A stretch of 64,000 bases of DNA, taken from NCBI GenBank assembly GCA_963753975.1, contig CAVWEH010000005.1:731734-795733 (forward strand), in the 5' to 3' direction. The first letter of the stretch is position 1, and each line of letters opens with the position of its first letter. This DNA comes from an uncultured delta proteobacterium (GTDB lineage: Bacteria; Desulfobacterota; Syntrophia; Syntrophales; Smithellaceae). This document shows, one piece after another, positions 4,759 through 63,175 of this stretch. Position numbers and translations under genes: made by a program. The notes under the pieces are model-generated. The model was not told the origin of the DNA, did not search any database, and worked only from the letters and a program-made list of their open reading frames with translations.

Positions 4759-4799
4759 TAAATGTATCTGTTGAAACAAATAATGATGGGGGGTACATT

Positions 4800-24665: not shown

Positions 24666-24689
24666 TTTTACTTGCCGTTTAACGGAGCT

Positions 24690-25091
24690 TTAGTGCGTTT
24701 TTATATTCGTCTTAATCCATTCCACAATAGAATCAAGCGAAGCGCCGGGAGTAAAAATCGCTTTGATGCCGGAATCGTATAGCAGGGAAAAATCCTGTTC
24801 GGGAATGATGCCGCCGCCGATCACCGTAATGTCGGATGCGCCTTTTTCGCGCAAGATTTCGACAACACGCGGAAAGAGCAGACGATGCGCACCGGAAAGA
24901 CAGCTCAAACCAACTAGGTCGACATCTTCCTGAATTGCGGCCGCCGCGATTTGTTCCGGTGTTTGATGACAGCCTGTATAGACGACTTCGAATCCGGCAT
25001 CGCGGAAACACCGCGCCAGAACGCGGGCGCCGCGGTCGTGGCCGTCAAGCCCCGGTTTGGCAACCATCACACGAATTTTTCTTTCCGGCAT
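24690..25091 (-). CDS. Acyl-CoA mutase small, cobalamin-binding subunit
   Basis: [11 protein letters not shown] (DxHxxG), [15 protein letters not shown]. Confidence 0.93.
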
Positions 25092-25126
25092 AGATATCTC
25101 CTTAAAATACTATAGCGACTTTGGAA

Positions 25127-25282
25127 CATTCCCGATGGCCTTCGGCCACGGGATCAATGCAACTAGCAGATATTGCTGTACTGCGTTTGCAATATCTGAG
25201 TTTCATCCCGACAGCTTTCGCTGCGGGATAATTCGACTAACGCTTCAAACTTCACGGTGTTCGTTTTCAGCGAGTCTCATTA
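25127..25282. repeat. Modular structured repeat, locus A (two units)
   Basis: CCCGA-hairpin-CGGGAT, then C[AG]ACT-stem-AGT[CT]TCAT units; shared with 41915-42175 and 62235-62312. Confidence 0.8.
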
Positions 25283-26965: not shown

Positions 26966-27133
26966 TACCCGCCTCCTCGTATTACCGCATGGAATAATTA
27001 AGAATAATTGCCTGCAAAAACTAGAAGGCAACTAACTCAAATGTTTGGTTTTTGTCAAGTTATATTAATGTAATTGGGGCTGGATTAACGTCTGTGGAGG
27101 AATGAAAATGAGGCAGTTATGAAGCTGAGAAAT

Positions 27134-36528: not shown

Positions 36529-36531
36529 CGT

Positions 36532-41242: not shown

Positions 41243-41256
41243 CGGAGGTAATAAAA

Positions 41257-42175: not shown

Positions 42176-42184
42176 AAAAAAGTT

Positions 42185-47833: not shown

Positions 47834-48259
47834 ATGAAACGTAAAGCTTCTGCAGTATGGAAAGGCGGGATAATGGATGGTCGCGGATTGTTAACGACGG
47901 ATAGCGGTGTCTTATCCAATACTCAATATTCATTTGCCACACGTTTTGAAAACGGTGTGGGTACCAATCCCGAAGAGTTGATTGCCGCAGCACATGCCGG
48001 ATGTTTTTCCATGGCGCTCTCCGGGCAGTTGGGAGCGGCAAAACTAACTGCCGAAACCATTAATACAACAGCGACTGTAACCATCGAAAAGCAGGGCGAG
48101 GGATTTGCCATCACCGCTGTTCATCTGGATGTTAAGGCAAAAATTCCCGGGGCATCCGTTGAAGCTTTCAATACGGCAGCCAAAAATGCCAAAGAAGGGT
48201 GCCCGGTATCCAAAGTGCTCAATGTCAAGATCACTATGAATGCCGTGCTTGTGTCCTGA
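47834..48259 (+). CDS. osmC: OsmC family peroxiredoxin
   Basis: [29 protein letters not shown]. Confidence 0.95.
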
Positions 48260-48539: not shown

Positions 48540-49403
48540 TTATTTTTGTTGAATGAAAAAATCTTCCATCAGTTTATTAACTTTAACGGCTTCTTCATGT
48601 TGAAGCCAATGGGTGGCTTCGGGGAACTTGATAAGCTTGCCCTGCTTACAGTAGGCCATGCTGTCATCGGCCATCTCGGACATGAGCGCGATATCTTTCA
48701 TCCCCCATAGAAGAAGCAAAGGCATCGTCACATCGAAACTGGCCGGTGGTTCTTGCTGCGTTTGGATCATTGCCCGATACCAGTTGACCATAGCAGGAAA
48801 GGCTCCCGGCTGCATAAATGCCTCCCGGTATTTTCCCAGTTCATCCAGCGTAAACGCCCCCGGCCGGCTGGTTTTGGCCAGTAGTTTGACCGGCCATTCA
48901 TAATTATTGGCAGAGGCAAACTTCTCCACGGCACCGGGCAGTTGAAAGTAAAATATGTACCAGCTTTTCTCCATCTGTTTGGGATTCGTAAACAGATTCT
49001 TAGCCATGATCTTGGGATGGGGCACGTTCATGATGACGAGACGTTGTAACCGTTGGGAATACTTAAGCGCTGTCCACCAGGAAACAGACGCGCCCCAGTC
49101 ATGACCGACAAGAAAAATCCGATCTCGCCCATAGGCGTCGATAAGGCCTACGGCGTCTTTGGCGAGCTCATCTATTTTGTATGAAGGAATTCCCTGAGGC
49201 TTGTCACTTAGGTTATAACCGCGCTGGTCGGGAACGACGACGAGATATCCTCTTTGAGCAAAATGCTCGATTTGCTTACGCCAGGCATACCAAAATTCGG
49301 GAAAGCCATGCAGAAACAAAATCATCGGACCATCTTTGGGCCCTGCTTCCATCACGTGAAGATTTATTCCATTGGTTTTAATATAGCATTCACGTAAATC
49401 CAT
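48540..49403 (-). CDS. Epoxide-hydrolase-like alpha/beta hydrolase
   Basis: HGFPEFWYAW, GHDWGA, SWYIFYFQ, NWYRA, ATHWLQHE. Confidence 0.9.
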   Translation of the reverse strand: MDLRECYIKTNGINLHVMEAGPKDGPMILFLHGFPEFWYAWRKQIEHFAQRGYLVVVPDQRGYNLSDKPQGIPSYKIDELAKDAVGLIDAYGRDRIFLVGHDWGASVSWWTALKYSQRLQRLVIMNVPHPKIMAKNLFTNPKQMEKSWYIFYFQLPGAVEKFASANNYEWPVKLLAKTSRPGAFTLDELGKYREAFMQPGAFPAMVNWYRAMIQTQQEPPASFDVTMPLLLLWGMKDIALMSEMADDSMAYCKQGKLIKFPEATHWLQHEEAVKVNKLMEDFFIQQK

Positions 49404-49425
49404 AAACTTTCCCTTCCTTTATTTG

Positions 49426-49550
49426 TTACGGTTTCAAATCACAGATGATACCAAGGCGGCAAGGAAGAGGCGACGGAGGCATACATGAAAAGTATGTTGA
49501 GGAGCCGATGACGATGCCAACGCAGGTAGCGCTGCGATATGTAACCGTAA
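49426..49550. mobile_element. MITE-like 125 bp imperfect palindrome
   Basis: 19-bp terminal inverted repeats (16/19): TTACGGTTTCAAATCACAG / CTGCGATATGTAACCGTAA; central GGCATAC-7nt-GTATGTT. Confidence 0.55.
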
Positions 49551-51509
49551 TTAGATATCCCAGGCGGCTTTCGCTCCTTCCGTAGTAGCCTCGATAATCC
49601 GGCGGGGCGCACTGGCGTCACCGATAATGAAGTGACGAATTCCTTTTTTCGCCAGCATTTCTTTCAGCTCATTTCGGGGCGTGACGCCGATGGCCACGAT
49701 GACCTGGTTTACAGGTTCGATATTTTTGTCTTTACCGCCCGTAGTTACAGTCACCGAGCCTTCTTTGATTAATTTCACTGTTGTATCGAACATAAGTTTA
49801 ACTCCCGCAGCCCGAAGGCGTTTATGAAGCATAAAGCCGTGCGCGGCCAGCGGCAAAACCGGGGAGCTACCTAGCATTTCTACTAAGGTGATATCCTTGA
49901 TGCCCTTTTCGCGCAGAAAATCGGCTGTTTCCATGCCCACAAGACCGCCGCCGATAACCACAACATGATCCCTGGGAGTGACTTCTCCATCCAAAATCTG
50001 CCACGCGTCGCAAACAACGGAGGAGGTAATGCCCTCGGCCGGGCAGGTGGATTTTTCCGCGCCGGTGGCCAGGATAACGACATCGGGTTTTCCCTTTCCA
50101 ATCATGCTCTCTGTAACTTCGGTGCCGGTTTTTATCTCCACACCTTGTTTCACGCACTTGGCCGTAAGTGTTTTAATGTATCTGGCATAAACCTCTTTGT
50201 GCGGTGCTTTCGCGGCATAAAGAACATTTCCACCTGTCTGCTTTTCCTGCTCAAACAACGTAACGTGATGTCCAAGACGCGCCGCCTCAAAAGCGGCAGT
50301 TAAACCGCCCGGACCGCCGCCAACGACCCATACTTTACGGCTGACTTTGGCGGGTTTTTCCGGATAGAGCAGTTCCTGACCAGTTTGCGGGTTAATCGCG
50401 CATCTGATTGGCAACTGTTCCAGTGAAAGACGCTCGATGCAGCCTTGGTTGCAGGCCAGACATTCCAGAGTATCTTCGGGATGTCCGGCGATGGCATTTT
50501 TCAGGAAATCGGGATCGGCAAGATGCTGGCGGGCAACGGCAATTAGGTCGGCATCTCCCCGGGCAATTACGTCGTCCATAACGTAAGGATCAGTGTAGCG
50601 GCCGACACTGATGACTGGAACATTGGTTACTTCTTTAATCTTGCGGGCAAGAAAGGCCTTAAACCCCTGTTCGAACTCAACTGGGGCACTGGGATTGGGC
50701 GTGTCGATGTTCACCGCGGGACTGCCGTGAGTGCCGAAAGATACGTTAATCATATCGGCGCCGGCGTTAACCAAATCCGGAATAATGGTCTGCATATCGG
50801 AAATGGTATAGCCGTTTTTGATGCACTCTTCGCCTGAAACTCTGATGGATAATGGGAAGTCTTTCCCGACTTTCTTGCGCACTTCCTGCAGACACTCAAT
50901 CATAAACCGCGAACGCGCCCGGAAATCTCCGCCGTATTTATCCGTGCGTTGATTGGAGTGGGCGGAAAGAAACTGCATGAGAAGATAACCGTGGGCTCCG
51001 TGAAGTTCCACGGCATCGAATCCAGCGGTGCGCGCACGTACAGCCGCGGCGCCGAAAGCGGCAATCGTTTCCTGAATGTCATCCAGGGCCATCTCCAGCG
51101 GCGCTCCGAGAAAGCCGAAAATATAGCTCGGAATAGCCGAAGGCCCGATAGCTTTTTTCTTGCGGAGAAGCAGGTAATTTTCGCGGCCGGTATGGTGAAG
51201 CTGCATGGCGATTTTTCCGCCCTGAGCATGGACAACACCGGCCAGCCTACTTAAGCCCGGAATGAATTTATCATCCCAGACTGCAATGCACCGCGGCGAA
51301 GCGGAGCCTAAAGGGTGCACTTCCGTTATTTCCGTGATAATAAGACCGGCGCCGCCTTGAGCCCGGCGCTTCATATAGGCCAGGTTTGCTTCGCTCACAG
51401 TGCTGTCGCTATTACCAAGAGCTGTTCCCATCGGCGACATGATTACGCGATTGGAAATTTCCAAATTTTTAATACGAATGGGGTTGAGCAGATTTTGTAA
51501 AGTTTTCAT
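49551..51509 (-). CDS. NADH:flavin oxidoreductase (OYE; 2,4-dienoyl-CoA/enoate reductase-like, Fe-S)
   Basis: ELHGAHGYL, CLACNQGC..CAINP, VVGGGPGG, IGGGLVG. Confidence 0.92.
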   Translation of the reverse strand: MKTLQNLLNPIRIKNLEISNRVIMSPMGTALGNSDSTVSEANLAYMKRRAQGGAGLIITEITEVHPLGSASPRCIAVWDDKFIPGLSRLAGVVHAQGGKIAMQLHHTGRENYLLLRKKKAIGPSAIPSYIFGFLGAPLEMALDDIQETIAAFGAAAVRARTAGFDAVELHGAHGYLLMQFLSAHSNQRTDKYGGDFRARSRFMIECLQEVRKKVGKDFPLSIRVSGEECIKNGYTISDMQTIIPDLVNAGADMINVSFGTHGSPAVNIDTPNPSAPVEFEQGFKAFLARKIKEVTNVPVISVGRYTDPYVMDDVIARGDADLIAVARQHLADPDFLKNAIAGHPEDTLECLACNQGCIERLSLEQLPIRCAINPQTGQELLYPEKPAKVSRKVWVVGGGPGGLTAAFEAARLGHHVTLFEQEKQTGGNVLYAAKAPHKEVYARYIKTLTAKCVKQGVEIKTGTEVTESMIGKGKPDVVILATGAEKSTCPAEGITSSVVCDAWQILDGEVTPRDHVVVIGGGLVGMETADFLREKGIKDITLVEMLGSSPVLPLAAHGFMLHKRLRAAGVKLMFDTTVKLIKEGSVTVTTGGKDKNIEPVNQVIVAIGVTPRNELKEMLAKKGIRHFIIGDASAPRRIIEATTEGAKAAWDI

Positions 51510-51636
51510 GGTTTACCTCCTGGGATGAAATAATCGGATATAATATGCCACGGTGGCAAACCGGCCTTTGCCGTCGCCCGCACGCGGACGACGGCATGCC
51601 GTATATTTTAGGTAATCAGGAAAAACGGTACTATTC

Positions 51637-52440
51637 TTACGTGGATAGATGCGTGCCCAATAAAAGACCGCCATCAATGACTATTTCTGTGCCGGTTGTA
51701 TAACTGGAGGCATTCGAAGCCAGGTAAATAGCGGCACCGGCAATTTCATCAGGTTCGCCAATGCGGCAGGTCGGCAGCATTTTGCACATTTCATCTCTCT
51801 GTCTCTTTGCTTCTTCCGGTGAAAGATGTCCCCAGTGCGAATTCATCATCTTGGTGCTGATGGGACCGGGAGCAATTGCGTTGACTTGAATGTTATCCCT
51901 GGCTAGCTCCATGGCAAAGGCCCTGGTAATCATACGTACACCGGCTTTGGAAATGGAATAGACACTTACGCCCGGCTCAGGATTGAAGCCGTCAATAGAA
52001 GCGATGTTGATTATTTTTCCGCCGCCTTGTTTCTTCATAACTTTGGCCACAGCCTGGCTCATGAAGTAAACGCCCTTGAGATTGAGATTCATGATCGTAT
52101 CCCAAAGACGCTCATCAGATTCCAGCACCGACCCCATCGCGGGACTGGCACCGGCGTTGTTGACCAGGATATCAATCCTTTTGTATTTATCCACCACGGT
52201 GTCGACCGTTTTCTGAATGCCTTCAAATTTACCTAAGTGCGATTGCAGAGGAAAAGCCTCGCCGCTGAAGGCTTTGATCTTGGCCGCTGTCGCTTCCAAA
52301 TCTTCCATCTTACGGCTGGTGATGATGACTTTAGCCCCGGCCTTGGCAAAACCAAAGGCTACAGCTTGACCGATACCCCGGCCACCGCCGGTAACAAGGG
52401 CTATTTTGCCTTTCAATGAAAATTGGTTTAGATCGAACAT
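51637..52440 (-). CDS. Short-chain dehydrogenase/reductase
   Basis: TGGGRGIG, NNAG, YSISK. Confidence 0.92.
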   Translation of the reverse strand: MFDLNQFSLKGKIALVTGGGRGIGQAVAFGFAKAGAKVIITSRKMEDLEATAAKIKAFSGEAFPLQSHLGKFEGIQKTVDTVVDKYKRIDILVNNAGASPAMGSVLESDERLWDTIMNLNLKGVYFMSQAVAKVMKKQGGGKIINIASIDGFNPEPGVSVYSISKAGVRMITRAFAMELARDNIQVNAIAPGPISTKMMNSHWGHLSPEEAKRQRDEMCKMLPTCRIGEPDEIAGAAIYLASNASSYTTGTEIVIDGGLLLGTHLST

Positions 52441-52556
52441 AATTTAATTCTCCTTAAGACGTGTGGGATATAGAACCATTGCCCGCCCTGCCCCCTTAAA
52501 TAGAGGCGCAGGGTGAGAATAATTTTATTTTTGACTGTCTTTGTTACTTGCTAGTT

Positions 52557-54062
52557 TTACTTTTTCGCTTTGGCCTTCTTGCTTAAGGCTTCGCGATCAC
52601 CGCCGCTCATGCCGGCAATATATTTCACCAGCTTCTTCCGGGACTCGATGTCATACTGAGTCGTGATGGCGATCTGCTCCATGATCGGCGAACCGCCGCC
52701 GTGGTAGCTACCAATGTTGTGAATACCGGCCGTTGCCGAACACATGGTATCACCCAAGAATCTCCAGAACTGAGCCTGATCTTCCGATGACATATTCGGA
52801 TTACGCTTTGTGTATTTCAAAAGCGCCTCGCCCGTTGCCGGATTGATAAAATCCTTCTCATGCGGGAATGTCGCCACAACGCCGCCCGCGATATCGCAAA
52901 GGATCTCCGCTTCGCGCCAGACTGCTTCGCCGGATAAACAGCGCCCGACGTTGCAGTAAATCGAATTGGGAATGAAGGAACCGGGTCCATAAGGCATGAA
53001 ACCGACGCCGGGAATATAGACTTCGGGTTTGCCCAAATCGGAAGCGGTATATCCCGCGGCATAACCAAGTTCGGTGGTCATGATCAGTTCCGCCAGCTTT
53101 TCCCGGACATGAGACTGCTTGTGAATATTGTTCACTTCGGCACCTAGAGCAGCCATTCCCATGATAACGTCGCCAATGGCCGGTTTGCAGCCGGAATAAG
53201 AATGGCGATGGAACAGGGCGAAAAGGAGAGCACATACGCCGCCGTGCTGATATTCCCCGGCCAGAAATACTCTTTCCCACGGTACAAAGCAGTTATCGAA
53301 AATCATGTAAGAATCGGTCGCGCCCGGAACAAATCCGCGTTTGTAATGATCACGGGGACGAAGGTTATGAATGGTAACAACCTGCTTCAAACCTTCCCAG
53401 TCGCCCGGAACGGCAAAAGCTACGGCGTAATCCTTGTCCTCCGGACGCAGGGCGCGGGTGGGCAGTACCAGAACTTCGTCGGCTACGGAAGCCTCGGAAA
53501 TGTGCACCTTACAGCCTTCCACGATTATGCCGTCCTTTGTTCTTTCCTTAATGCGCACATACGCACCGGGATTCGGCTGGTCGGCCGGTCGCAGCATGCG
53601 GTCGCCCTTCACATCCGTCTGAGCACAGCAGCCGACAAGGTCTTCTTTTTGGAAACGGGTCAGCCACTTCTTGAAGTTTTCATGGTAATTGGTCTCCCCT
53701 TTTTTCACCTTGTCCGCCTCAAAAGAGACGTTATAGATAGCATTCGAGCCATCGATACCCATGCAACGCTGGATACAACCGCCAACTTTCTGGCACAGCA
53801 TGCGGGTCATATCCTGCTTTCTGTGCAGGTCTTCCTTGTTCTGGTGGATGTGGGTGAAACGGTTGATCTTTTCTCCGGTGAGATGGGAAGTAGCCGTGCA
53901 CAACTCCTGATTCTCCGGTTTGGCCGCCTCATCATACGTTGTACCGATGGTATTGAGGCAATCCATTTGCAGTTCGTCTGTCCTGTCGATCAGTTGTCCA
54001 TCGTAGTAAAGATTCCGCTTCATCTTGGACAGACCTTTGATATAATCTTTCTTGGTTCTCAT
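52557..54062 (-). CDS. Divergent 4-hydroxybutyryl-CoA dehydratase (AbfD) family Fe-S flavoprotein, paralog 4
   Basis: GCIQRCMGID, TDVKGDR, HRHSYSGCK, HGGGSP. Confidence 0.88.
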   Translation of the reverse strand: MRTKKDYIKGLSKMKRNLYYDGQLIDRTDELQMDCLNTIGTTYDEAAKPENQELCTATSHLTGEKINRFTHIHQNKEDLHRKQDMTRMLCQKVGGCIQRCMGIDGSNAIYNVSFEADKVKKGETNYHENFKKWLTRFQKEDLVGCCAQTDVKGDRMLRPADQPNPGAYVRIKERTKDGIIVEGCKVHISEASVADEVLVLPTRALRPEDKDYAVAFAVPGDWEGLKQVVTIHNLRPRDHYKRGFVPGATDSYMIFDNCFVPWERVFLAGEYQHGGVCALLFALFHRHSYSGCKPAIGDVIMGMAALGAEVNNIHKQSHVREKLAELIMTTELGYAAGYTASDLGKPEVYIPGVGFMPYGPGSFIPNSIYCNVGRCLSGEAVWREAEILCDIAGGVVATFPHEKDFINPATGEALLKYTKRNPNMSSEDQAQFWRFLGDTMCSATAGIHNIGSYHGGGSPIMEQIAITTQYDIESRKKLVKYIAGMSGGDREALSKKAKAKK

Positions 54063-54230
54063 GGTGATAATCCTTTCTTATTTAATTTTCTATTTATCGT
54101 TTTTCTCACCCGAGGGGATTCTTAGTCCCTCGGATATTCTCAACATATCTTTCTTTTGAAGAATCCCTGCCGGGGTAAGGGCCTCTTCCGGTTTCAAGTG
54201 CCGGAGCAGATCGGACTCTTCCTTGCCGAT

Positions 54231-55730
54231 TTATTTACTCCCTTTCTTGCTAAGCGCTTCCCGATCTCCGCCGCTCATACCGGCGATGTATTTTACCAGC
54301 TTCTTTCGGGATTCTATATCGTACTGCGTTGTAATCGCGATCTGCTCCATGATGGGCGATCCGCCGCCGTGGTAATTGCCCACGTGGATGATACCGCCGG
54401 TGGCCGAGCACATCGCGTCGCCCAGGAATCTCCAGAACTGCGCCTGATCTTCAGCAGACATTTTGGGATTGCGCTTGGTGTATTTCAAAAGCGCTTCTCC
54501 GGTCGCCGGATTAGTGAAGTCTTTTTCATGCGGGAAGGTCGCGACAACGCCGCCAGCCAGATCGCAAAGAATTTCCGCCTCACGCCAGACTTCCTCGCCG
54601 GTGAGACAACGGCCGACATTGCAGTAGATCGAATGGGGAATAAAGGAACCGGGGCCGTAAGGCATAAAACCAACACCGGGGATGTAAACTTCCGGTTTAC
54701 CCAGATCTGATGCCGTGTAACCGGCGGCGTAGCCCAGTTCGGTGGTCATGATAATTTCGGCCAGTTTCTCGCGGACGTGAGATTCTTTATGGATGTTGTT
54801 GCATTCTGCCGCCAATGCCGCCGTGCCCAGCAGGACGTCGCCTATGGCGGGCTTACAACCGGAATAAGAATGGCGATGGAACAGAGCAAACAAAAGCGCC
54901 AAAATGCCGCCGTGCTGGTATTCGCCGGCCAGGAAGACTCTTTCCCAGGGCACAAAACAGTTTTCAAAGATCAGGTAGGAATCGGTGAGCCCCGGGGTGA
55001 AACCGCGTTTATAATGTTCACGGCCGCGGTAGTTATGAATAGTTACAACTTGTTTCACGCCATCACAGTCCGCGGGAACCGCAAACGCCACCGCGTAGTC
55101 CTTATCTTCGGGACGCAACGCTCGGGTGGGCAGAACCAGAATCTCGTCGGATACGGAGGCTTCGGAAATATGGACTTTACAGCCCTCCACAATAATGCCG
55201 TCCTTGGTTCTTTCCTTAATATAAACATAAGCACCGGGATTGGGCTGTTCCGCAGGGCGCAGCATACGATCACCCTTCACATCGGTCTGGGCGCAGGCGG
55301 CAATCTGATCTTCCTTCTGGAACCGGGCCAGCCACTTTTTGAAGTTTTCATGATACTGTGTCTTGCCTTTGTTGGCTTTGTCGGCTTCATAAGAAACGTT
55401 GTAAATCGCATTGGTGCCGTCGATGCCCATGCAGCGCTGTATGCAGCCGCCAACTTTCTGGCAGAGCATTCTGGTCATATCCTGCTTTTTATGCAGATCT
55501 TCCTTGTTTTGATGAATGTGCGTGAAGCGGTTGATTTTCTCTTCCGAGAGGTGAGACTTGGCAGTCATCAGGCCTTCATTTTCCGGTCTGGCTGCTTCAT
55601 CATACGTAGTGCCGATGACATTGATACAGTCCATCTGCAGTTCGTCCGTCCTGTCGATCAGATTGCCGTCATAATAGACGTTGCGTTTCATTTTCGACAG
55701 GGCTTTGATTAAATCTTGCTTGGTTCTCAT
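54231..55730 (-). CDS. Divergent AbfD-family protein, paralog 3 (tandem duplicate of 52557-54062)
   Basis: Same motifs; collinear and highly similar. Confidence 0.88.
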   Translation of the reverse strand: MRTKQDLIKALSKMKRNVYYDGNLIDRTDELQMDCINVIGTTYDEAARPENEGLMTAKSHLSEEKINRFTHIHQNKEDLHKKQDMTRMLCQKVGGCIQRCMGIDGTNAIYNVSYEADKANKGKTQYHENFKKWLARFQKEDQIAACAQTDVKGDRMLRPAEQPNPGAYVYIKERTKDGIIVEGCKVHISEASVSDEILVLPTRALRPEDKDYAVAFAVPADCDGVKQVVTIHNYRGREHYKRGFTPGLTDSYLIFENCFVPWERVFLAGEYQHGGILALLFALFHRHSYSGCKPAIGDVLLGTAALAAECNNIHKESHVREKLAEIIMTTELGYAAGYTASDLGKPEVYIPGVGFMPYGPGSFIPHSIYCNVGRCLTGEEVWREAEILCDLAGGVVATFPHEKDFTNPATGEALLKYTKRNPKMSAEDQAQFWRFLGDAMCSATGGIIHVGNYHGGGSPIMEQIAITTQYDIESRKKLVKYIAGMSGGDREALSKKGSK

Positions 55731-55757
55731 ATATAATACTCCTTATAATATCCTTTA

Positions 55758-56495
55758 TTAGTGTGTTTGTCTTGCCTGAGGAGGCCTTCGCGGCGCCTTT
55801 AAGCGTTTTTTTAATATTTCCTTTGTCTGGAAAAGTTCCCCAAAAATCCGGGCAGCTTCCGGTTTCAGATAAAGCGTCAATCCGGCATTTTCTTCCTTGG
55901 CCCGAATACCATCCAAAATGATTTCGATAAAAGGATCGAGCATGTCCATTATGCTTGTCTTTCTTTTCGGCATTCCCAGCATATGCCAATGAATGAATAA
56001 GTGTTCAATAGTGCCCATTAACATGGAACGAATGAGATATGGATTGGAATTTTTTTTGAACGTGCCGTCTGTAACTCCCTCTTTGATGCAATCAAGAAGC
56101 CGATGAGCAGACCGGCGAATCGCCGCGTGTGCTGGCGTCTTGCGGAACCGCTTGTTGGACATGAGCTGAAGGAGAACCAGGGCGGAATAATTGGGATTCG
56201 ATTGATAAAGTTGAACGTAGGACAACAGAATGGCGCGCATCTTTCCTTCCACATCTTTGATAAAGGGTATGACCTTCGACGTTGCATCAGAAGTTTCATT
56301 GGATATCTTTTCGGGAATAGCGAAGAGGAGATCTTCCTTGGTGCCGAAATACTCATAGATTGTGGCTTCCGAAACTCCCGCTTCTTTACTGATTTCGGTA
56401 ATAGTCGCGTTCTGGAAACCTTTTTCGGCAAAGATACGCAGGGCGGCATCCATGATACGGTCTTTTCTGGTCTTTGCCCTCACGTGATCAGCCAT
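55758..56495 (-). CDS. TetR family regulator (FadR-like)
   Basis: IMDAALRIFAEKGF..ISKEAGVSEATIYEYF. Confidence 0.92.
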   Translation of the reverse strand: MADHVRAKTRKDRIMDAALRIFAEKGFQNATITEISKEAGVSEATIYEYFGTKEDLLFAIPEKISNETSDATSKVIPFIKDVEGKMRAILLSYVQLYQSNPNYSALVLLQLMSNKRFRKTPAHAAIRRSAHRLLDCIKEGVTDGTFKKNSNPYLIRSMLMGTIEHLFIHWHMLGMPKRKTSIMDMLDPFIEIILDGIRAKEENAGLTLYLKPEAARIFGELFQTKEILKKRLKAPRRPPQARQTH

Positions 56496-56523
56496 GAAAA
56501 TATCCCTCTAACAGTGTGGATGA

Positions 56524-56582
56524 ACACTATATTATTATAGTCGCACTGTCAAGTTTTATTTTATTTCATAGTATGACTATGA
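56524..56582 (-). promoter_or_regulatory. Promoter and palindromic operators for the tetR-abfD-like operon
   Basis: TTGACA-17nt-TAGTGT; ACTATA-N4-TATAGT overlapping the -10/spacer; TCATAGT-N3-ACTATGA at 56566-56582. Confidence 0.6.
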
Positions 56583-56664
56583 TATTTTGCGAATATTTAT
56601 AGTGATATAAGAAAAAAGATTGTTTTCGTGGCGGGATTATTCTCTATAATATCATCCGGTAGGG

Positions 56665-57432
56665 CTATTTCTTTTTCATCGCGGCAAGCTTTGCCTGAAG
56701 CGCGTCTATTCTCCGGTGATTGTCCTCCGATCCGATATAACTTCTGAAGAGCCATTCCTGGAGACGCATGGCCCCGTCCAGATCTTCGTTCAATATTTTA
56801 TTGGCCAGCCGCTTGGTTTCCTTTAAACAACCCCTATCGTAAGTCGCCATCTCGCGCGCAATTACGCCTACCGATTCCAGAAGCTTGCCTTCGGGAAAGA
56901 CCTTGCTCACATATCCCATGCGCTCTGCTTCCTGGGCATCATAGATTCTGCCGGTCAAAGCAACTTCTTTGGCCCGCCCAAGACCGATGATCCGCCAAAG
57001 CGGGTCCATGATCGGTGTAAGCGAAAGAACGATTTCGCGCTGGCCGAATTTAGCGCGTTCGGAGGCATAACGCACATCGCACATCATGGTGAGATCAAAA
57101 CCCCCGGCAATGGCCGCACCTCCTACCGCACAGATAACCGGCTGTTCACAAAATAAAATCGCTCGGTATGCCCGGTGGAAAAGGGCCGTGTATGTCTCAT
57201 TGGATACTTTCTCCAGCCTTCTTATCTCATTGAGGTCAAAGCCCGCGGAAAAATATTTTTCCCCGCCGGTAAAAACGATAACGTTCACGTCTTGTCTTTT
57301 GCCGAGATCAGTGAACAATTTTTCCACTTCCTCCAGAACCTCTGGCGCGAGGGCATTGCCTTTGTCCGGCCGGTTGATCGTTACAGTTGCGACTTTCCCT
57401 TCCACGGAAACCAATAAATATTTTAAGCCCAT
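56665..57432 (-). CDS. Enoyl-CoA hydratase/isomerase family
   Basis: NRPDKGNAL, FSAGFDL, AIAGGFDLTMMCD, FGQRE. Confidence 0.9.
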   Translation of the reverse strand: MGLKYLLVSVEGKVATVTINRPDKGNALAPEVLEEVEKLFTDLGKRQDVNVIVFTGGEKYFSAGFDLNEIRRLEKVSNETYTALFHRAYRAILFCEQPVICAVGGAAIAGGFDLTMMCDVRYASERAKFGQREIVLSLTPIMDPLWRIIGLGRAKEVALTGRIYDAQEAERMGYVSKVFPEGKLLESVGVIAREMATYDRGCLKETKRLANKILNEDLDGAMRLQEWLFRSYIGSEDNHRRIDALQAKLAAMKKK

Positions 57433-57466
57433 ATAACCTTCACCTTTCCCCTTTAATTTGGTTAGT

Positions 57467-58906
57467 TTATTTATCTATTTTAGCCAAAGTTTTAGCCAAC
57501 TGCATTTTTTGCGGCAAGTTGCCGAGGCGCTGATACATGATCCTCTGGCTTTGCGGAGAACCCGCACCATGCATACTTTCAACGAGGCAGGTCCCGCCGG
57601 TCATATTTTCGATAAGCCTCAATATCTTCATTCTTGTCTCCGCGGAGACTCCTTTTACTCCCGCCATATATTTCTTCACATATTTGCCGATCTTTTCGCT
57701 ATTCAGATCCTTGTCGAAGGGAAGCGTAGCCATGATACCCCCGGCTATGTCGTGCGCGAGGCGCGATATCTCATAAATATTCCTGGTGATATTGTGCTTG
57801 GCGCAATTGGCCAAAAGCGGATCGGGATAATAAGCTCCGCTTTTTGTTTTGGAACCCATAGCGGAACAGGCGATTGATGAAGAATAAACGGTCTCTACGA
57901 GATGCATCATCTCGACTAGCTTATCCTTAATATGAGAGGCATCCAATGTGCCCTGGTACTGGGCGGCAAGCGCTGCCGCTCCGATAATGACATCCGATAC
58001 CCCACCTTTGCAGCCACCGTAATTCTGCCTATGTAATGTAGCGAAACGCTCTACGAGAAGACCGGTAAAATCTATCTCTCCGCACATGAAAACTCTGTCC
58101 CAGGGAACGAAAACATTTTCCAGAACGACCAGCGCTTCACCGCCGACAACGCCATATTCAACGTTGCCTGCGTCGATACCCCTTTCAAATTTTCTTTCTT
58201 CATTGGTTTGCCGGCCGAAGATCAGCGTAATGCCTTCAGCGTTCATGGGGATAGCGGCAGCAACAGCGTAAGCCTCGTCCCCCTTTCCCATAGTCTGCGT
58301 CGGCATGATAATAATCTCGTGGCTGTTAACCGCCCCCGTCTGATGTGCTTTTGCCCCGCTAATTACGATGCCGTCTTTTCTTTTTTCCACAACTCTCGTA
58401 AAAACATCGGGATCGTCCTGTTCGTGCGGGCGCTTGGATCTATCCCCTTTCGGATCGGTCATTCCCCCTGCTACAATCAAATTTTCGGACTGAATCATTT
58501 TCAGATATTTGGTGAAGCGCTGAAAATAGTTGGTGCCGTGCGCTTCATCAATTTCGTAGGTTGTCATGTAAAGAGCGTTCAGGGCGTCGAACCCTACACA
58601 GCGCTGAAAGCAACTCCCCGTTTCGTGGGAGATTAGCCGCAACATTTGAACTTTCTTTATCAGGTCGTCGACAGACTGATGGATATGGGTAAAGCGGTTG
58701 ATTTTTTTCCCCGTCAGATGGCTCGTTGCGGTGAGAAGATCTTCGTGCTCGGGCATCAAGGCCAACTCGTAGGTTTTGGCTGCGGCATTGATATGGGGAA
58801 TGAAGGCGGGATGAGTTGTAATGTCTTCGACATGTTCTCCATTGTAATAAACATTTAATTTCTGGCGCTTCAAACTTTCAATATAATCCTGTTTTGTTTT
58901 AATCAT
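57467..58906 (-). CDS. AbfD-family dehydratase/isomerase, paralog 2
   Basis: SCFQRCVGFD, KAHQTG, GGEAL, HRQNYGGCK, ESMHGAGS. Confidence 0.9.
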   Translation of the reverse strand: MIKTKQDYIESLKRQKLNVYYNGEHVEDITTHPAFIPHINAAAKTYELALMPEHEDLLTATSHLTGKKINRFTHIHQSVDDLIKKVQMLRLISHETGSCFQRCVGFDALNALYMTTYEIDEAHGTNYFQRFTKYLKMIQSENLIVAGGMTDPKGDRSKRPHEQDDPDVFTRVVEKRKDGIVISGAKAHQTGAVNSHEIIIMPTQTMGKGDEAYAVAAAIPMNAEGITLIFGRQTNEERKFERGIDAGNVEYGVVGGEALVVLENVFVPWDRVFMCGEIDFTGLLVERFATLHRQNYGGCKGGVSDVIIGAAALAAQYQGTLDASHIKDKLVEMMHLVETVYSSSIACSAMGSKTKSGAYYPDPLLANCAKHNITRNIYEISRLAHDIAGGIMATLPFDKDLNSEKIGKYVKKYMAGVKGVSAETRMKILRLIENMTGGTCLVESMHGAGSPQSQRIMYQRLGNLPQKMQLAKTLAKIDK

Positions 58907-59240
58907 ATATTTTCCCTCCTCTATCCTTAGGGCGGGTTTGCAGATTTAACTTTTTTATGTTCCGCACGGCGATATCGGCCAGTTTTTCTTCCGGCGTATT
59001 TTCCAGATCGACCGACTTACCCGCTACCAATATCCAGCGGCGGGCCAGATTTTTGATTTCCGGTTTGTCCACACAGGCCAATGGGCATCCGCAAACCATA
59101 ATTCCGATATCCCAGGGATTTGCGGCCTTCGTGGTTAAGCTATATCCGGGAGGCAGAGCTTTCCGAATTTCATAGACCAACTTTGCTCTGTCGATGAGAG
59201 GATTACAACCACCGCAATATTTTATGCCAATGAGCGTCAT
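58899..59240 (-). CDS. Small Cys-rich hypothetical protein
   Basis: IKYCGGCNP..VCGCPLAC; overlaps the start of the downstream abfD paralog. Confidence 0.75.
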   Translation of the reverse strand: MTLIGIKYCGGCNPLIDRAKLVYEIRKALPPGYSLTTKAANPWDIGIMVCGCPLACVDKPEIKNLARRWILVAGKSVDLENTPEEKLADIAVRNIKKLNLQTRPKDRGGKIYD

Positions 59241-59269
59241 TAGTATGTTATCCGGCGCGGCAAAGTCGA

Positions 59270-60721
59270 TTAATCCTTAATTCCGGCGATTTCTTTAGCC
59301 AATTTCTTTTTGTAATCGAGATTGCCCTGGCGCGCGATCATCACGCGCTGCGCCTGTGGTGAGCCTGCGCCGTGCATGGATTCTGTGCGATAGCCTACTG
59401 CAGCCGTACCGAGTGTGATATTTTCCACCAGTCTCAAAACGCGGCAGCGATTCTCCGTAGGCACCGACGCGATTCCCTTAAAATATTTTTCGACTATTTT
59501 GCCTATTGCCGGGTTGTGCAAATCCTTTTCGGAAGCCATCGTTACCATTAATCCGCCGGCAATATCTTCGGCGAGTCTCGCAATTTCATAGGGCAGTCTG
59601 GTAACGTTTTGTTTGCAGACATTGGCCAGAAGCAAATCGATGAGGTAGGTGCCGGAAGCTGTCTTGTGACCCTGTGCCGAGCAGGCAATGCCGCAAGAGT
59701 ACAGAGTTTCATTCAAATGGATCATTTCGATCAATTTGTCTTTGATATGCGACGCCTTCGCGGCGCCGTTATAATCGGCGGCCAGCGCCGCCGCACCGAT
59801 GAGCACATCTCCAACGCCCACTTTGCACCCGCCGTAACTCTGACGATGATAACCGGCGAAGCGTTCCACCAGAAGCCCGCTGAATTCGTATTCGCCGCAC
59901 ATAAACACGTTTTCCCAGGGAACGAATAAATTATCAAAAACCATAAGGGCTTCGTGGCCGCCGAATTGCCGGTTGCCCACATCGATTTCACCGCCTTCGA
60001 GTTTGCGCGTATCGCACGATTGCCGTCCGTAAATATAGGATATGCCTTCCGCATCGGCAGGTGCCACAAAAGAAAGAGCATAGTCGGCATCGTCTTTAGA
60101 CATAGCCACCGTGGGCATTACTAAAATCCAGTGGGAATTTATGGCCCCGGTCTGGTGGGCTTTGGCGCCCCGGACGACAATACCATCTTTCCTTTTTTCC
60201 ACGACATGAGTGTAAAGGTCGGGGTCCGCCTGCTTGCTGGGAGAGAGAGAACGGTCGCCTTTGGGATCGGTCATGGCACCGTCTACAGTCAAATCTTCCT
60301 CCTGGACCATTTTCAGAAATTTAAGAAAACGCTCATGATATTTGGTGCCGCGCTTTTGATCCATCTCGAACGTAACGCTGTCAACGGCATTGATGGCGTC
60401 CATGCCTACACAGCGCTGAAAGCAGGATGCAGTTTTTTGCCCGAGCATTCTTTGCATTTTTACTTTTTTTATCAGATCGTCCGTACTCTGATGCAGATTG
60501 CAGAAGCGATTGATTTTTTTTCCGGTCAGATGCGATTTGGCGGTCATCAGGTCTTCATACTCGGGATTATTCGCCAGGGCGTAAGTCATTTTTACGGAAT
60601 TCATCGACGGCCTAATGATCGGATTATCCACTGGATTTTTCACCAGTTCACCCAGCAAATAGACTTTAAATTTCATTTTACGCAAACTTTCTTCATATTG
60701 TTCAGCGGTTTTCAGCGCCAT
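59270..60721 (-). CDS. abfD: 4-hydroxybutyryl-CoA dehydratase / vinylacetyl-CoA isomerase
   Basis: KTASCFQRCVGMD, DGAMTDPKGDR, KAHQTG, FGGHEAL, YHRQSYGGCK, GYRTESMHGAGSPQAQ as in clostridial AbfD. Confidence 0.93.
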   Translation of the reverse strand: MALKTAEQYEESLRKMKFKVYLLGELVKNPVDNPIIRPSMNSVKMTYALANNPEYEDLMTAKSHLTGKKINRFCNLHQSTDDLIKKVKMQRMLGQKTASCFQRCVGMDAINAVDSVTFEMDQKRGTKYHERFLKFLKMVQEEDLTVDGAMTDPKGDRSLSPSKQADPDLYTHVVEKRKDGIVVRGAKAHQTGAINSHWILVMPTVAMSKDDADYALSFVAPADAEGISYIYGRQSCDTRKLEGGEIDVGNRQFGGHEALMVFDNLFVPWENVFMCGEYEFSGLLVERFAGYHRQSYGGCKVGVGDVLIGAAALAADYNGAAKASHIKDKLIEMIHLNETLYSCGIACSAQGHKTASGTYLIDLLLANVCKQNVTRLPYEIARLAEDIAGGLMVTMASEKDLHNPAIGKIVEKYFKGIASVPTENRCRVLRLVENITLGTAAVGYRTESMHGAGSPQAQRVMIARQGNLDYKKKLAKEIAGIKD

Positions 60722-60814
60722 TAACTTAATGCCTCCTCAAATATTTGTATTTTCATGATTTTCAAATTGAACCAGCGTTGTCTAGCGCACAGGACAATGT
60801 TGATATTAACAAGA

Positions 60815-60867
60815 TGATTCAATCAATGCTTCTAATTTAGTTTAGACATGCGGAGAAAAATTGTCAA
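60815..60867 (-). promoter_or_regulatory. abfD promoter with downstream palindrome
   Basis: TTGACA-17nt-TAAACT (60839-60867); TGATT-N-AATCA at 60815-60825. Confidence 0.6.
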
Positions 60868-60909
60868 ATTAATTTCATCCGGAACTTATACCATTGGCAA
60901 TTTATGAGT

Positions 60910-61260
60910 TTAGTCGCTCTCCGGCAAAGTACACGACTTAACAAAATCTGCCAGTTGTTTCTCACTTAAGCCCACACCCGGCTCTCCATCCAAGCGTTTA
61001 GAAACGGAACCTTTCTCAAAGAAAATAACAGTGGGGAAAACGTCTATTGAATATTTGTTCCCTATGCTTTCCTGGTCATCCTGAACACGCAAAAAATACC
61101 GCTGCTCTTCTTGGGCATATTGCTGAAATATAGGCAAAAACCTTTTGCAAAAAGGACACCAGGACGCGTAAACAAGAGCGATTACCCTATCTTTTGTCTT
61201 TAAAATTTCGTTCAGATCATTTTCGTTGTCAACCAGAACACCTTTGTCATCTAAATTCAT
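60910..61260 (-). CDS. Thioredoxin family protein
   Basis: YASWCPFC, FPTVIFF. Confidence 0.88.
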   Translation of the reverse strand: MNLDDKGVLVDNENDLNEILKTKDRVIALVYASWCPFCKRFLPIFQQYAQEEQRYFLRVQDDQESIGNKYSIDVFPTVIFFEKGSVSKRLDGEPGVGLSEKQLADFVKSCTLPESD

Positions 61261-61274
61261 AATATTTCCCCTTT

Positions 61275-62180
61275 TCACCCCTGCTGCAATATTTCCACAA
61301 TTCTGTCGCGCATATCAGTGCTTTTGGTGTCTGCCGGAATAACATCTATTGCGGCAGGAGTTGCGGCGCCCAAGCCCAATTCAACGGCGCGGGCAATTTG
61401 TTCTTGCTCAAATATTTTCGTATTCATGATCTGGTCGTTGCTGCCCAGATATTTCAAAATAGCTACCCCCACCGCATCAATTGCCACACGATCTTTTGCC
61501 GCTAAAAAAACATTTCCTCTGGCCAGTTTTCCAGTGGCCTGCCCTTCATCCACAAAAGCTTCAACCCCGTCCATGACCACCAATTGAGGACTAAAGGGCT
61601 GATTGATCTCGGCAATCATCTTGCGCTGATGAGGAGATGTATGCAGTTCATGCATATACGAATATCCATGGCGCTCCGTCGGAACAACTCCGACATGAAG
61701 TTTCAGGGATAAGGTAAAGATTCCTCCGAATTGATGCGTTTTCAGACAGCCAGTGGAAACCAGACATTCGGCCTCCAGAATAGGTCGCGCAACGCGGAAG
61801 CCGTTTGCCCAATGACTACTTTTGGGTTTAAATTCTACCCAGTCTTCTTCTTTTAAATCATCAAAATCGATAACCCGGACATCCAGTTTCTGCAGAACAG
61901 GCAAGACCCCTTTGAGTTCCATGACCTTCCTTGTCCGCGGCCAGCTTCTTTCTCCTAAACTTATGGATTTGGCCCCCATAGCCCATAACTCCTCCGCCAA
62001 CGCTGCCAGTGTATCATTGTGCGTGGAACCGGGCGTGGGATCGGCCGTATTGAAATTCGGCTTGATAAGAACGTGTTTTCCTTTTACCGGATTAACATTC
62101 AGCGCTTTCAGGGAAGCACTGACTCCTTCTCGGCGAGACTCTGTCCTGGCCAGAATCACCGGACTTTTGGTAGTTGCCAT
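61275..62180 (-). CDS. DUF362 domain protein
   Basis: VLIKPNFN, LKTH, TLSLKLHVG, DRVAIDAVG. Confidence 0.85.
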   Translation of the reverse strand: MATTKSPVILARTESRREGVSASLKALNVNPVKGKHVLIKPNFNTADPTPGSTHNDTLAALAEELWAMGAKSISLGERSWPRTRKVMELKGVLPVLQKLDVRVIDFDDLKEEDWVEFKPKSSHWANGFRVARPILEAECLVSTGCLKTHQFGGIFTLSLKLHVGVVPTERHGYSYMHELHTSPHQRKMIAEINQPFSPQLVVMDGVEAFVDEGQATGKLARGNVFLAAKDRVAIDAVGVAILKYLGSNDQIMNTKIFEQEQIARAVELGLGAATPAAIDVIPADTKSTDMRDRIVEILQQG

Positions 62181-62234
62181 CGGGAAACACCTATAACGGC
62201 ATTAGTAACTCTATTGACCTCAGGTATCTTCGAC

Positions 62235-62312
62235 AATACCCTCCGCCTTCGGCGGGATAAATTCAACTAACGCTTCAAACTTCTCTGCGTTCGTTTTCGG
62301 CAAGTTTCATTG
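62235..62312. repeat. Modular structured repeat, locus C (one unit)
   Basis: CGCCTTCGGCGGGATAAATTCAACTAACGCTTCAAACTTC..TTCGTTTTC..AGTTTCATT, closely matching unit 2 of locus A. Confidence 0.8.
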
Positions 62313-62386
62313 ACTGCTTCGGTTTTATTATCTTCTGAGCGATGCGCACTTCAATAATTTGACCCCCGATCAGGACTCACGAACTA

Positions 62387-63175
62387 TCACACCTTCATAC
62401 CGGGCATGTTTAAGGAGGCTGTGTTGCCGCCGTCCACGGCCAGATATTGACCCGTTATAAAACTGGCTTCGTCACTGGCTAAAAACAAGATAGGGTATGC
62501 GCATTCTTCTGGATTACCGTAGCGTCTCAGTTCGCAGCGGCTGCCCATCATGTCTATTTTGCCCTTTGCTCTGGCGGCGTCGAAAAACTTCTGAGTCATC
62601 TCTGTCTCAAAGAGTCCCGGGCATACGCAGTTCACTCGCACATTGTAGCAGCCCAGATCACAGGCCGACGTCATGGTGAAGTTAATCATAGCGGCCTTGC
62701 TGGCGCTGTAAGCGTTACCGCCGGCGCCTGAGCGTATACCTGCCACGGAAGATATGTTGACAATGGAACCGCTCTTCTTCCCTATCATATAGCGGACCAG
62801 GTGTTTAGTAGCCAGAACCGCACTCAATACGTTAGTCTGATAAACATCATGCCATATCTTTGCGTCCTGATGTTCCAGGTCAACCATATCACCGCCCATA
62901 CCGGCATTATTGACCAAAATATCCACGGTGCCGAAGGCGGCTATTGTCGCCTCCGCGAGGGCTTTGACGTCTTCTTCTTTGGACACGTCCGTGGCCTTGT
63001 AGATTGCCTCACCGCCCAGTTTTTTCATCTGAGCCGCCAGTTCCTTTAATTTGTCCTCCCGGCGCGCGGCCACAACCATGCGAGCCCCTTCTTTAGCGAA
63101 CAATAAAGCCGTGGCCCAGCCGATACCGCTAGAGGCCCCGGTGATCACAGCTACTTTGCCAGAAAGTCTTCCCAT
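62387..63175 (-). CDS. Short-chain dehydrogenase/reductase
   Basis: TGASSGIG, NNAG, YSASK. Confidence 0.92.
   Translation of the reverse strand: MGRLSGKVAVITGASSGIGWATALLFAKEGARMVVAARREDKLKELAAQMKKLGGEAIYKATDVSKEEDVKALAEATIAAFGTVDILVNNAGMGGDMVDLEHQDAKIWHDVYQTNVLSAVLATKHLVRYMIGKKSGSIVNISSVAGIRSGAGGNAYSASKAAMINFTMTSACDLGCYNVRVNCVCPGLFETEMTQKFFDAARAKGKIDMMGSRCELRRYGNPEECAYPILFLASDEASFITGQYLAVDGGNTASLNMPGMKV

Follow-up and report, generated by a model that had tools for sequence, protein, structure and literature searches.

4-Hydroxy and 4-oxo acids block β-oxidation, and syntrophs live on very small energy margins. To our knowledge, a solution by radical dehydration is known only for C4. In this study, we analyzed a window of 64,000 nucleotides (the whole stretch of DNA examined) at the end of contig CAVWEH010000005.1 (C5) of an uncultured Smithellaceae bacterium (GCA_963753975.1; genome of 2.43 Mb, 95% complete), in which four genes of the 4-hydroxybutyryl-coenzyme A (CoA) dehydratase (AbfD) family, here called paralogs A to D, lie in one gene cluster. 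Paralogs C and D belong to a widespread clade with a remodeled active site (the D clade), and the neighbors of this clade suggest a role in β-oxidation that would need no adenosine triphosphate (ATP). The D clade in Desulfobacterota is linked here for the first time to β-oxidation loci and to the partner genes of the kinase/ACAD10-11 route.

The general solution described for 4-hydroxy and 4-oxo acids spends ATP; a kinase together with ACAD10/11, or LvaA together with LvaC, forms the known route from 4-hydroxyacyl-CoA to 2-enoyl-CoA (excerpts from PMC11342911 and PMC12440821). The Lva system of Pseudomonas putida (LvaA/LvaC) and mammalian ACAD10/ACAD11 have the same predicted job as D, and their loci share neighbors with D loci, namely, a PRK07035-type short-chain dehydrogenase/reductase (SDR), an ortholog of the second SDR of our cluster (SDR2), DUF362, and 3-hydroxyacyl-CoA dehydrogenase (HADH). 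The two differ in that the described systems use a kinase and ATP, whereas D would use Fe-S/flavin adenine dinucleotide (FAD) radical chemistry and no ATP. For AbfD of Clostridium aminobutyricum, excerpts from bioRxiv 2020.02.05.935528 give C99, C103, H292, and C299 as the cluster ligands and report T190, E257, Y296, and E455 as important for the dehydration of 4-hydroxybutyryl-CoA. Multiple AbfD homologs in anaerobic fatty-acid degraders, as seen here, are also described in excerpts from PMC3949148, which cover AF0333, AF0885, and AF1027 of Archaeoglobus fulgidus and five homologs of Desulfatibacillum alkenivorans.

Two kinds of AbfD paralog in one gene cluster

Fourteen minus-strand open reading frames (ORFs) run from 63924 to 48540, with intergenic gaps of −8 to 206 bases. 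The ORFs named in an earlier note on this DNA, which span 48540–63175, were all intact and on the minus strand. Each of the four AbfD-family ORFs matched both Pfam HpaB_N and HpaB, and four of the five HpaB_N matches of the 2.43-Mb genome fell within one 8-kb stretch, indicating that the clustering is not due to chance. The features of the cluster were as follows.

59270..60721, minus strand: AbfD paralog A, canonical 4-hydroxybutyryl-CoA dehydratase type, 483 aa; 779 bits to C. aminobutyricum AbfD (1U8V); C99, C103, H292, C299, T190, E257, Y296, and E455 kept
58899..59240, minus strand: small AF_0334-like protein, 113 aa, between A and B; four invariant Cys; ESM Atlas feature match, a lead only
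57467..58906, minus strand: AbfD paralog B, second canonical-site type, 479 aa; 60% identity to A; all 15 key residues as in A
56665..57432, minus strand: crotonase-family protein; Pfam ECH_1; first catalytic Glu replaced by Asp
56567..56581, no strand assigned: predicted TetR operator 1, perfect palindrome CATAGT-N3-ACTATG; conserved single copy before tetR
56536..56552, minus strand: predicted promoter/operator 2, in which a −35-like box (TTGACA) overlaps another palindrome, an imperfect one; CTTGACAGT invariant in 14 of 14
55758..56495, minus strand: TetR-family regulator, weakly Bacillus FadR-like; Pfam TetR_N and YsiA-like C terminus; NF053878 at 95 bits, below the cut-off of 200
54231..55730, minus strand: AbfD paralog C, D-clade copy 1, 499 aa; 87% identity to D; six active-site changes
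52557..54062, minus strand: AbfD paralog D, D-clade copy 2, 501 aa; 300 bits to 1U8V; signature as in C
51637..52440, minus strand: SDR1, DHRS4/PRK07035-like carbonyl reductase, predicted 4-oxoacyl-CoA reductase; PRK07035 at 271 bits, below the cut-off of 373; YxxxK kept
49551..51509, minus strand: old yellow enzyme (OYE)-family flavin mononucleotide (FMN)/[4Fe-4S]/FAD ene-reductase, 652 aa; NCR 311 bits, FadH 284 bits; BaiCD 524 bits, below the cut-off of 825
48540..49403, minus strand: epoxide-hydrolase-type α/β hydrolase; top PDB matches are epoxide hydrolases, 219 bits

The Pfam matches, the identities, and a motif check agreed with the earlier note's description of four co-oriented AbfD-family paralogs of three sequence types that carry CxxxC and HxxxYxxCK. 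A and B shared 60% identity, C and D shared 87%, and identity between the two pairs was 35–39%. The [4Fe-4S] ligands C99, C103, H292, and C299, together with R90, Y296, and K300, were present in all four paralogs. In A and B, T190, E257, Y296, and E455 were all kept, and both proteins were canonical at 15 of the 15 positions examined. C and D carried the changes M149Q, T190S, G191E, E257D, E455G, and A460G, leaving S190, D257, Y296, and G455 in place of the catalytic set of AbfD. The structure model of D (predicted local distance difference test score 94.7) had a template-modeling score of 0.89 to 1U8V, indicating that the fold is kept. Compared with the AbfD proteins of C. aminobutyricum (1U8V) and Nitrosopumilus maritimus (6VJR), the likeness thus covers the fold, the ligands, R90, Y296, and K300, whereas C and D are set apart by 34% identity in the structural alignment, the six residue changes, an 11-residue insertion, and their position next to β-oxidation genes rather than 4-hydroxybutyrate activation genes. 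Judged by their residues, the four paralogs are not four equal DEHYDRATASES; A and B look standard, and C and D are a variant without Glu455. The earlier note had overlooked the catalytic-residue losses of C and D, the four-Cys AF_0334-like gene, and the internal promoter/operator before tetR.

Many D homologs carry the database label "aromatic ring hydroxylase." An identity as HpaB flavin monooxygenase was rejected, as TIGR02309 and TIGR02310 gave 128–177 bits against a cut-off of 480 and the proteins were closer to 1U8V than to HpaB. Elsewhere in the genome, a fifth, lone AbfD-like gene lies on contig C4 (263863–265404; 8864–10405 of locus L001), which has a single Cys of the CxxxC motif and no Y296; its 87% orthologs in G013 and G002 lie approximately 3–4 kb from a methylmalonyl-CoA mutase operon. 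Across the AbfD family, CxxxC and the third Cys are retained in dozens of clusters defined at 50% identity that vary at positions 257, 292, 296, and 455, and by this pattern they form a large pool of candidate radical flavoenzymes.

Distribution, neighbors, and predicted reaction of the D clade

Among 161 distinct AbfD-like ORFs from the fetched loci, 136 were assigned to the D group. E455 was absent in all 136, the four Fe-S ligands and Y296 were kept in all 136, and one 14-residue signature was common to 122 of the 127 copies with at least 55% identity. In a 129-sequence FastTree tree, from which sequences more than 86% identical had been dropped, the D group was a clade with a support of 1.0. 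D-type genes occurred in 22 of 25 Smithellaceae genomes, in 19 at an identity of at least 84% (one frameshifted) and in three at 66–67%; one more genome had a fragment, and no D-type gene was found in G012 (95% complete) or G017 (95%). For comparison, A-like canonical genes were intact in 21 of the 25 genomes, and B was present in nine at an identity of at least 82%. D-type genes at 81–87% were also found in Dehalococcoidia, Desulfatitalea, and elsewhere, and the wider D clade was present in 56 of 301 Desulfobacterota genomes. In locus L136 (8823–15566), an outer D-clade gene, an SDR, and a zinc alcohol dehydrogenase converge on genes that by sequence appearance encode an HgdC-like activator and 2-hydroxyacyl-CoA-dehydratase-like proteins.

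The layout with four AbfD copies was present in three of 20 loci read. In a tree of 47 D-type copies, many deep nodes of which were weak, the first and second tandem members did not form separate clades, and no residue marked the position. As position-specific lineages and residues are lacking, C and D are likely a recurrent dosage duplication. An assembly artifact was ruled out, because the relative G010 carries both the C and D copies at 100% protein identity. The proposal of the earlier note that the four paralogs divide chain lengths among themselves is thus not sustained, with A and B being canonical, C and D having no position-specific lineages, and the four-copy layout being rare.

The loci of D homologs were then compared for their neighbors. 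A gene for thiolase, HADH, acyl-CoA dehydrogenase (ACAD), or acyl-CoA ligase lay within 6 kb of D in 24 of 32 loci outside Smithellaceae, whereas such a gene was this close to 15% of 1000 sites drawn at random from this genome, and by reading of the loci, β-oxidation neighbors were seen in 12 of 14 families. A FadE-type marker was present in 50 of the 56 D-clade genomes versus 127 of the 301 genomes overall. These frequencies support an auxiliary role in β-oxidation, as the earlier note had suggested, for part of the cluster.

The neighbors of D were also shared with the kinase/ACAD10-11 route. Among five regions viewed around aerobic relatives of SDR1 (39–44% identity), three held a phosphotransferase and an ACAD, one held only a histidine phosphatase, and one held only an ACAD; the Caballeronia ACAD next to one of these relatives gave 411 bits to ACAD11 versus 157 bits to the next family. 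Against the PRK07035 cut-off of 373, which SDR1 (271) did not reach, the SDR beside D in L200 scored 399 and the Caballeronia SDR 466. In an SDR tree, which left out three of the five aerobic SDRs through an ORF filter, one clade (0.917) comprised SDR1, the D-adjacent SDRs of L050, L115, L188–L190, L192, and L200, and a kinase-linked SDR of Azoarcus. Among 20 Desulfobacterota kinase/ACAD11 loci, the neighbors included types seen at D loci, namely, a PRK07035-type SDR in six, the DUF362 type in four, an SDR2 ortholog in one, and the SDR found upstream of the Smithellaceae cluster in one. In G245, one SDR-HADH block occurs twice (77% nucleotide identity, 1.8 kb), with D as the neighbor of one copy and kinase/ACAD11 as that of the other, and L205 (D) and L268 (kinase/ACAD11) both hold SDR2 and a carboxyltransferase. 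Orthologs of SDR2 (61–69%) adjoin D-clade genes in L065, L086, L087, L093, L099, L141, and L205 and adjoin kinase/ACAD11 in L268. SDR1 orthologs of at least 57% identity were found in 19 genomes of six families, and all 19 genomes carried a D-clade gene.

Searches for the kinase and for ACAD11 gave no match in this genome or in five other Smithellaceae genomes, while these queries had matches in 46 and 40 of the 301 genomes. Membership of the cluster in the Lva/ACAD10-11 route was rejected, as it has neither an APH-type kinase nor an ACAD11-type dehydrogenase; the two may work alike. Among the 127 marker-positive genomes, seven carried both D and the kinase, in comparison with an expected 12.6 (core clade) or 16.1 (whole clade), with nominal p values of 0.024 and 0.0004 for this depletion that are overstated by kinship. 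The window holds, in addition, another PRK07035-like SDR at 6939–7733 on the plus strand (314 bits, below the cut-off), which is closer than SDR1 to the aerobic kinase-linked SDRs.

The remodeled active site and the partners shared with kinase/ACAD10-11 are in line with the non-C4 4-hydroxy or 4-oxo substrate that had been proposed in the earlier note and is here predicted for part of the cluster. We consider it an even call, on sequence and gene context, that D acts, without ATP, as a radical dehydratase on 4-hydroxyacyl-CoAs longer than C4 and is fed by a 4-oxoacyl-CoA reductase. In this mechanism, an acyl-CoA would relieve TetR repression at the palindromic operator, and SDR1, as its family context suggests, would convert 4-oxoacyl-CoA to 4-hydroxyacyl-CoA. 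In C and D, the open Fe of the [4Fe-4S] cluster would then bind the 4-hydroxyl group, and water would be removed by FAD-radical chemistry to give 2-enoyl-CoA, a step proposed on the basis of the retained C99, C103, H292, C299, Y296, and K300. The loss of E455 may widen the pocket beyond C4, the E191/D257 pair of the clade may take over proton transfer, and the 2-enoyl-CoA product would enter β-oxidation without ATP. The ene-reductase and epoxide hydrolase added in Smithellaceae might, more speculatively, bring 2-enoyl and epoxy forms of oxidized lipids into the same 4-oxo/4-hydroxy pool.

Several findings weigh against this dehydratase assignment. The 32 D loci were chosen from the best matches, four of them were picked with knowledge of a nearby SDR match, and many are kin or truncated. 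In Chloroflexota, D stands alone, with a β-oxidation gene nearby in two of 23 loci. SDR1 lies below the PRK07035 cut-off and is only 39–44% identical to the aerobic SDRs, and outside Smithellaceae, its orthologs were beside neither D nor the kinase in 10 of 10 loci (L208–L217). Across the 301 genomes, the overlap of D and the kinase was seven versus an expected 6.9–8.6, with seven genomes carrying both, so a plain genome-wide exclusion between them was rejected. Partner sharing, moreover, reflects a common pathway position and says nothing on chain length. E191 is absent in the outer D clade (42–55%; none of nine kept it) and in three of 127 inner copies, indicating that E191 cannot be a general replacement for E455.

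As E455 is important for dehydration, its loss could equally mean another reaction. The alternative that survives best, which we judge unlikely, is that the D clade handles another C4 group (an amine, an ether, or a ring hydroxyl as in 3-hydroxycyclohexanecarbonyl-CoA) or takes part in alkene breakdown and does not act on straight 4-hydroxyacyl-CoAs. The loss of E455 while the cluster ligands are kept, the many active-site variants across the AbfD family, and the stand-alone Chloroflexota copies would fit such a reaction, and the Archaeoglobus and Desulfatibacillum homologs have been suggested for alkene degradation (excerpt from PMC3949148, section 17, citing Estelmann 2011). However, the shared partners and the swap in G245 point to the slot of kinase/ACAD10-11, the tested substrates of which are 4-hydroxyacyl-CoAs, and no ring-degradation genes recur among the annotated neighbor clusters.

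Neither a D-clade enzyme nor an AbfD for longer chains was the subject of any paper listed in a literature search; most subscription journals were outside its scope, so absence from print is not shown. If D is the predicted dehydratase, an ATP-free radical enzyme would explain why fatty-acid-degrading anaerobes have several AbfD homologs, which is an open question in the excerpts from PMC3949148. Many proteins now labeled "aromatic ring hydroxylase" would also need a corrected name, and the enzyme would provide a biocatalyst for levulinate- and lactone-derived acids. The value of the locus lies in a widespread AbfD clade with a specific, assayable substrate prediction and not in the four-copy layout.

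Two probable gene units and their companion genes

Upstream of tetR, CTTGACAGT was invariant in 14 of 14 aligned regions, with two palindromes flanking it. Of 15 other Smithellaceae genomes, 13 each carried the perfect palindrome CATAGT-N3-ACTATG a single time, always before tetR. It was absent from all nine genomes of other families, and the two Smithellaceae genomes without it were also without an intact D match. Adjacency of tetR and D was observed in all nine own-genus loci and in 10 of 13 loci from other Smithellaceae genera. With this conserved operator/promoter before tetR, the region probably consists of two units, A-AF_0334-B-crotonase and tetR-C-D-SDR1-OYE-hydrolase, the second of which lies behind the operator. 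A consensus promoter scan did not list the TTGACA box before tetR; the consensus promoter/terminator scan was near the shuffle level (28 vs 22.5 shuffled; 31 vs 21). A second perfect operator copy lies on contig C4 at 215710–215724 (4711–4725 of L278), 39 bases before an α/β hydrolase gene, and was not seen in the relatives searched. As this copy is not conserved and the genome-wide operator scan at a score of 14 gave six sites versus 11–24 in shuffles, no wider TetR regulon is claimed. In six metatranscriptomes, only 5–7% of the sequence words were present. Four metatranscriptome contig sets of 88% likeness, from relatives, covered D in four of four runs and bridged D and SDR1 in two of four; they were not used as evidence of expression, because contigs cannot show level, strand, or a single transcript.

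Profile scans confirmed the companion families named in the earlier note (crotonase, TetR, two SDRs, OYE, α/β hydrolase, thioredoxin, and DUF362). Their association with D was counted at a 55% identity threshold in nine own-genus, 13 other Smithellaceae, and 32 other-family loci. OYE was found with D in 9/9, 4/13, and 0/32 of these loci, respectively, and the hydrolase in 8/9, 2/13, and 0/32. The OYE/hydrolase part of the linkage that the note had put forward is thus largely limited to Smithellaceae. OYE has the architecture of an FMN barrel, a four-Cys [4Fe-4S] motif, and an FAD domain. In this three-domain plan, with its four-Cys cluster motif and FAD/NAD(P) domains, it resembles FadH (1PS9), 2-naphthoyl-CoA reductase (6QKG), and BaiCD, from which it differs in the HGAHGY motif and in falling below every curated cut-off. 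HGAHGY stands at residues 170–175, where Escherichia coli FadH has GSEGY, and on this active-site motif, a FadH identity was rejected, and the dienoyl-CoA reductase label of the earlier note is not supported. The hydrolase has all of the epoxide-hydrolase motifs (HGFP, GHDWG with the Asp nucleophile, two cap Tyr, and the catalytic His), which predict such an activity.

These data bear on the model of the earlier note, in which one co-regulated pathway spans the cluster, the four paralogs split chain lengths, and OYE serves as a 2,4-dienoyl-CoA reductase for unsaturated fatty acids. The genes are co-oriented and closely spaced, and in eight or nine of the nine own-genus loci, D is accompanied by SDR, OYE, hydrolase, and crotonase. 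However, the internal operator splits the region, the four-copy layout is rare, C and D are not partitioned, and OYE lacks the FadH motif and is missing from all 32 other-family D loci. In the other Smithellaceae genera read, moreover, A lies apart from D. We regard a single pathway of this kind as improbable. The proposed source in oleate or 10-hydroxystearate also finds no support, as this genome, which is 95% complete, yielded no oleate hydratase, although the acid could come from other microbes.

In the first unit, A and B, the AF_0334-like protein, and the crotonase would, by pathway logic, treat 4-hydroxybutyryl-CoA, for example, as the C4 remnant of omega-hydroxy fatty acids, a source that would need no CoA-transferase. 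A scan of 47 window proteins, which cover part of the window ORFs, revealed neither a CoA-transferase nor a succinate-semialdehyde gene, in agreement with the earlier note. Three CoA-transferases of the acetyl-CoA-hydrolase family lie elsewhere in the genome, and one of them is But/Cat2-like, below the cut-off. In an alignment of the crotonase with 5Z7R, GGFD stands against GGCE, and the second Glu is kept.

The small protein between A and B resembles the family of A. fulgidus AF_0334; AF0333 is an AbfD homolog of that organism (excerpt from PMC3949148, section 17). The AF_0334 family (PF27236) had an ESM Atlas feature score of 0.90, with 209–210 of 256 features shared, and the Pfam copy used gave no match. 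C9, C12, C52, and C56 were invariant in 35 sequences. An AbfD gene lay within 1.5 kb of its homologs in 19 of 30 loci, and in eight, the homolog lay between HADH and a B12 mutase. By these residues and neighbors, the protein is likely a metal or Fe-S accessory of AbfD enzymes. A predicted complex of paralog A with it scored 0.01 and was not used either way. The eight loci of the second kind (L236, L237, L239, L241, L244, L247, L249, and L252) belong to one Desulfobacterota family and place the gene between 3-hydroxyacyl-CoA dehydrogenase and a mutase with Phe/Gln.

The B12-dependent mutase and the rest of the window

The remaining features of interest in the window were as follows.

60910..61278, minus strand: thioredoxin (WCPFC), a local neighbor whose pathway membership is not shown; in seven of nine own-genus loci and none of 32 other-family loci
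61275..62180, minus strand: DUF362 protein, a variable insert; in three of 20 loci
62387..63175, minus strand: SDR2, rare at this place; ortholog in one of 20 loci
24690..27031, minus strand: large and small subunits of a B12-dependent acyl-CoA mutase with an isobutyryl-CoA-mutase-like signature; 21 kb away from the AbfD cluster

The DUF362 and SDR2 genes are, by these counts, variable inserts at this locus. The mutase belongs to a minus-strand operon (23077–27031) that encodes the split-subunit B12 acyl-CoA mutase (Phe/Gln), MeaB, and cobalamin adenosyltransferase and adjoins nickel/cobalt uptake genes. Its orthologs (77–95%) were present in most Syntrophales searched.

One possibility is a mutase-coupled route, in which the isobutyryl-CoA-mutase-like enzyme would turn 3-oxo- or 3-hydroxy-2-methylacyl-CoA into 4-oxo- or 4-hydroxyacyl-CoA, and SDR1 and D would carry this on to 2-enoyl-CoA; we regard it as a long shot. 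Just as doubtful is its C6 case, in which tetR-D-SDR1 and the B12 mutase would be the missing core of Smithella propionate dismutation. Here, two propionyl-CoA would condense to 2-methyl-3-oxopentanoyl-CoA, which the mutase would convert to 4-oxohexanoyl-CoA; SDR1 would reduce this compound, D would dehydrate 4-hydroxyhexanoyl-CoA to 2-hexenoyl-CoA, and ordinary β-oxidation would yield acetyl-CoA and butyryl-CoA with no ACAD step. By analogy with the methylmalonyl-CoA mutase reaction, a thioester shift of 2-methyl-3-oxopentanoyl-CoA to the methyl carbon would indeed give 4-oxohexanoyl-CoA. At the positions of Tyr and Arg in methylmalonyl-CoA mutase, the window mutase has Phe and Gln, a non-carboxylate signature, and the second mutase of the genome has Tyr/Arg. 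A mutase match was found in 24 of 24 relatives of the family, the D clade is present in most Smithellaceae genomes (22 of 25, 19 at an identity of at least 84%), and AF_0334 homologs adjoin both AbfD genes (19 of 30 loci) and the same mutase type (eight loci). The enzymes of Smithella propionate dismutation were never identified according to excerpts from PMC13685792 and PMC8892533, and the main text of PMC13685792 has no occurrence of "dehydratase" or "abfD."

Against the mutase-coupled route, the mutase lies 21 kb from D with no operon link and was not beside D in three of three loci of this type read. It also occurs in Syntrophales without a D match (G027, G028, G030, G034, and G035), and D occurs widely beyond Smithella, with no match found in G012 or G017. 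Ordinary isomerization of isobutyrate or 2-methylbutyrate would explain the mutase, and a 2-methylpentanoyl-CoA route would give the same carbon map. Named genes and intermediates are now available for testing the unidentified Smithella propionate pathway.

Least probable of all is that the four paralogs act on C4 only (4-hydroxybutyryl-CoA or vinylacetyl-CoA) or that C and D are mere Δ3-Δ2 isomerases: A and B are canonical, and But/Cat2-like CoA-transferases and iron alcohol dehydrogenases lie elsewhere in the genome, but C and D differ at three of the four residues reported to be needed for C4 dehydration, and the D group keeps the four Fe-S ligands and Y296 throughout, which a plain isomerase should not need, as the isomerase activity of AbfD survives cluster loss.

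On contig C1 of this genome (L133, 9296–12879), a glycyl-radical enzyme and its activase adjoin a long-chain acyl-CoA ligase; an AssA identity for this enzyme, the only glycyl-radical enzyme of the genome, was unsupported, with all family models below the cut-off. The AbfD cluster is flanked by a Rap1a-like immunity protein gene (46278–46634, minus strand) and an OsmC-family gene (47726–48259, plus strand). At 3644–5180, 11502–12566, 35582–38210, and 40149–44460 of the window, several genes, for CstA, acetyl-CoA synthetase, NiFe hydrogenase subunits, and hypD- and hypF-like products, look split or truncated, possibly through assembly indels or decay. A haloalkane dehalogenase family protein is encoded at 16895–17815 on the minus strand (PRK00870, 477 bits, above the curated cut-off).

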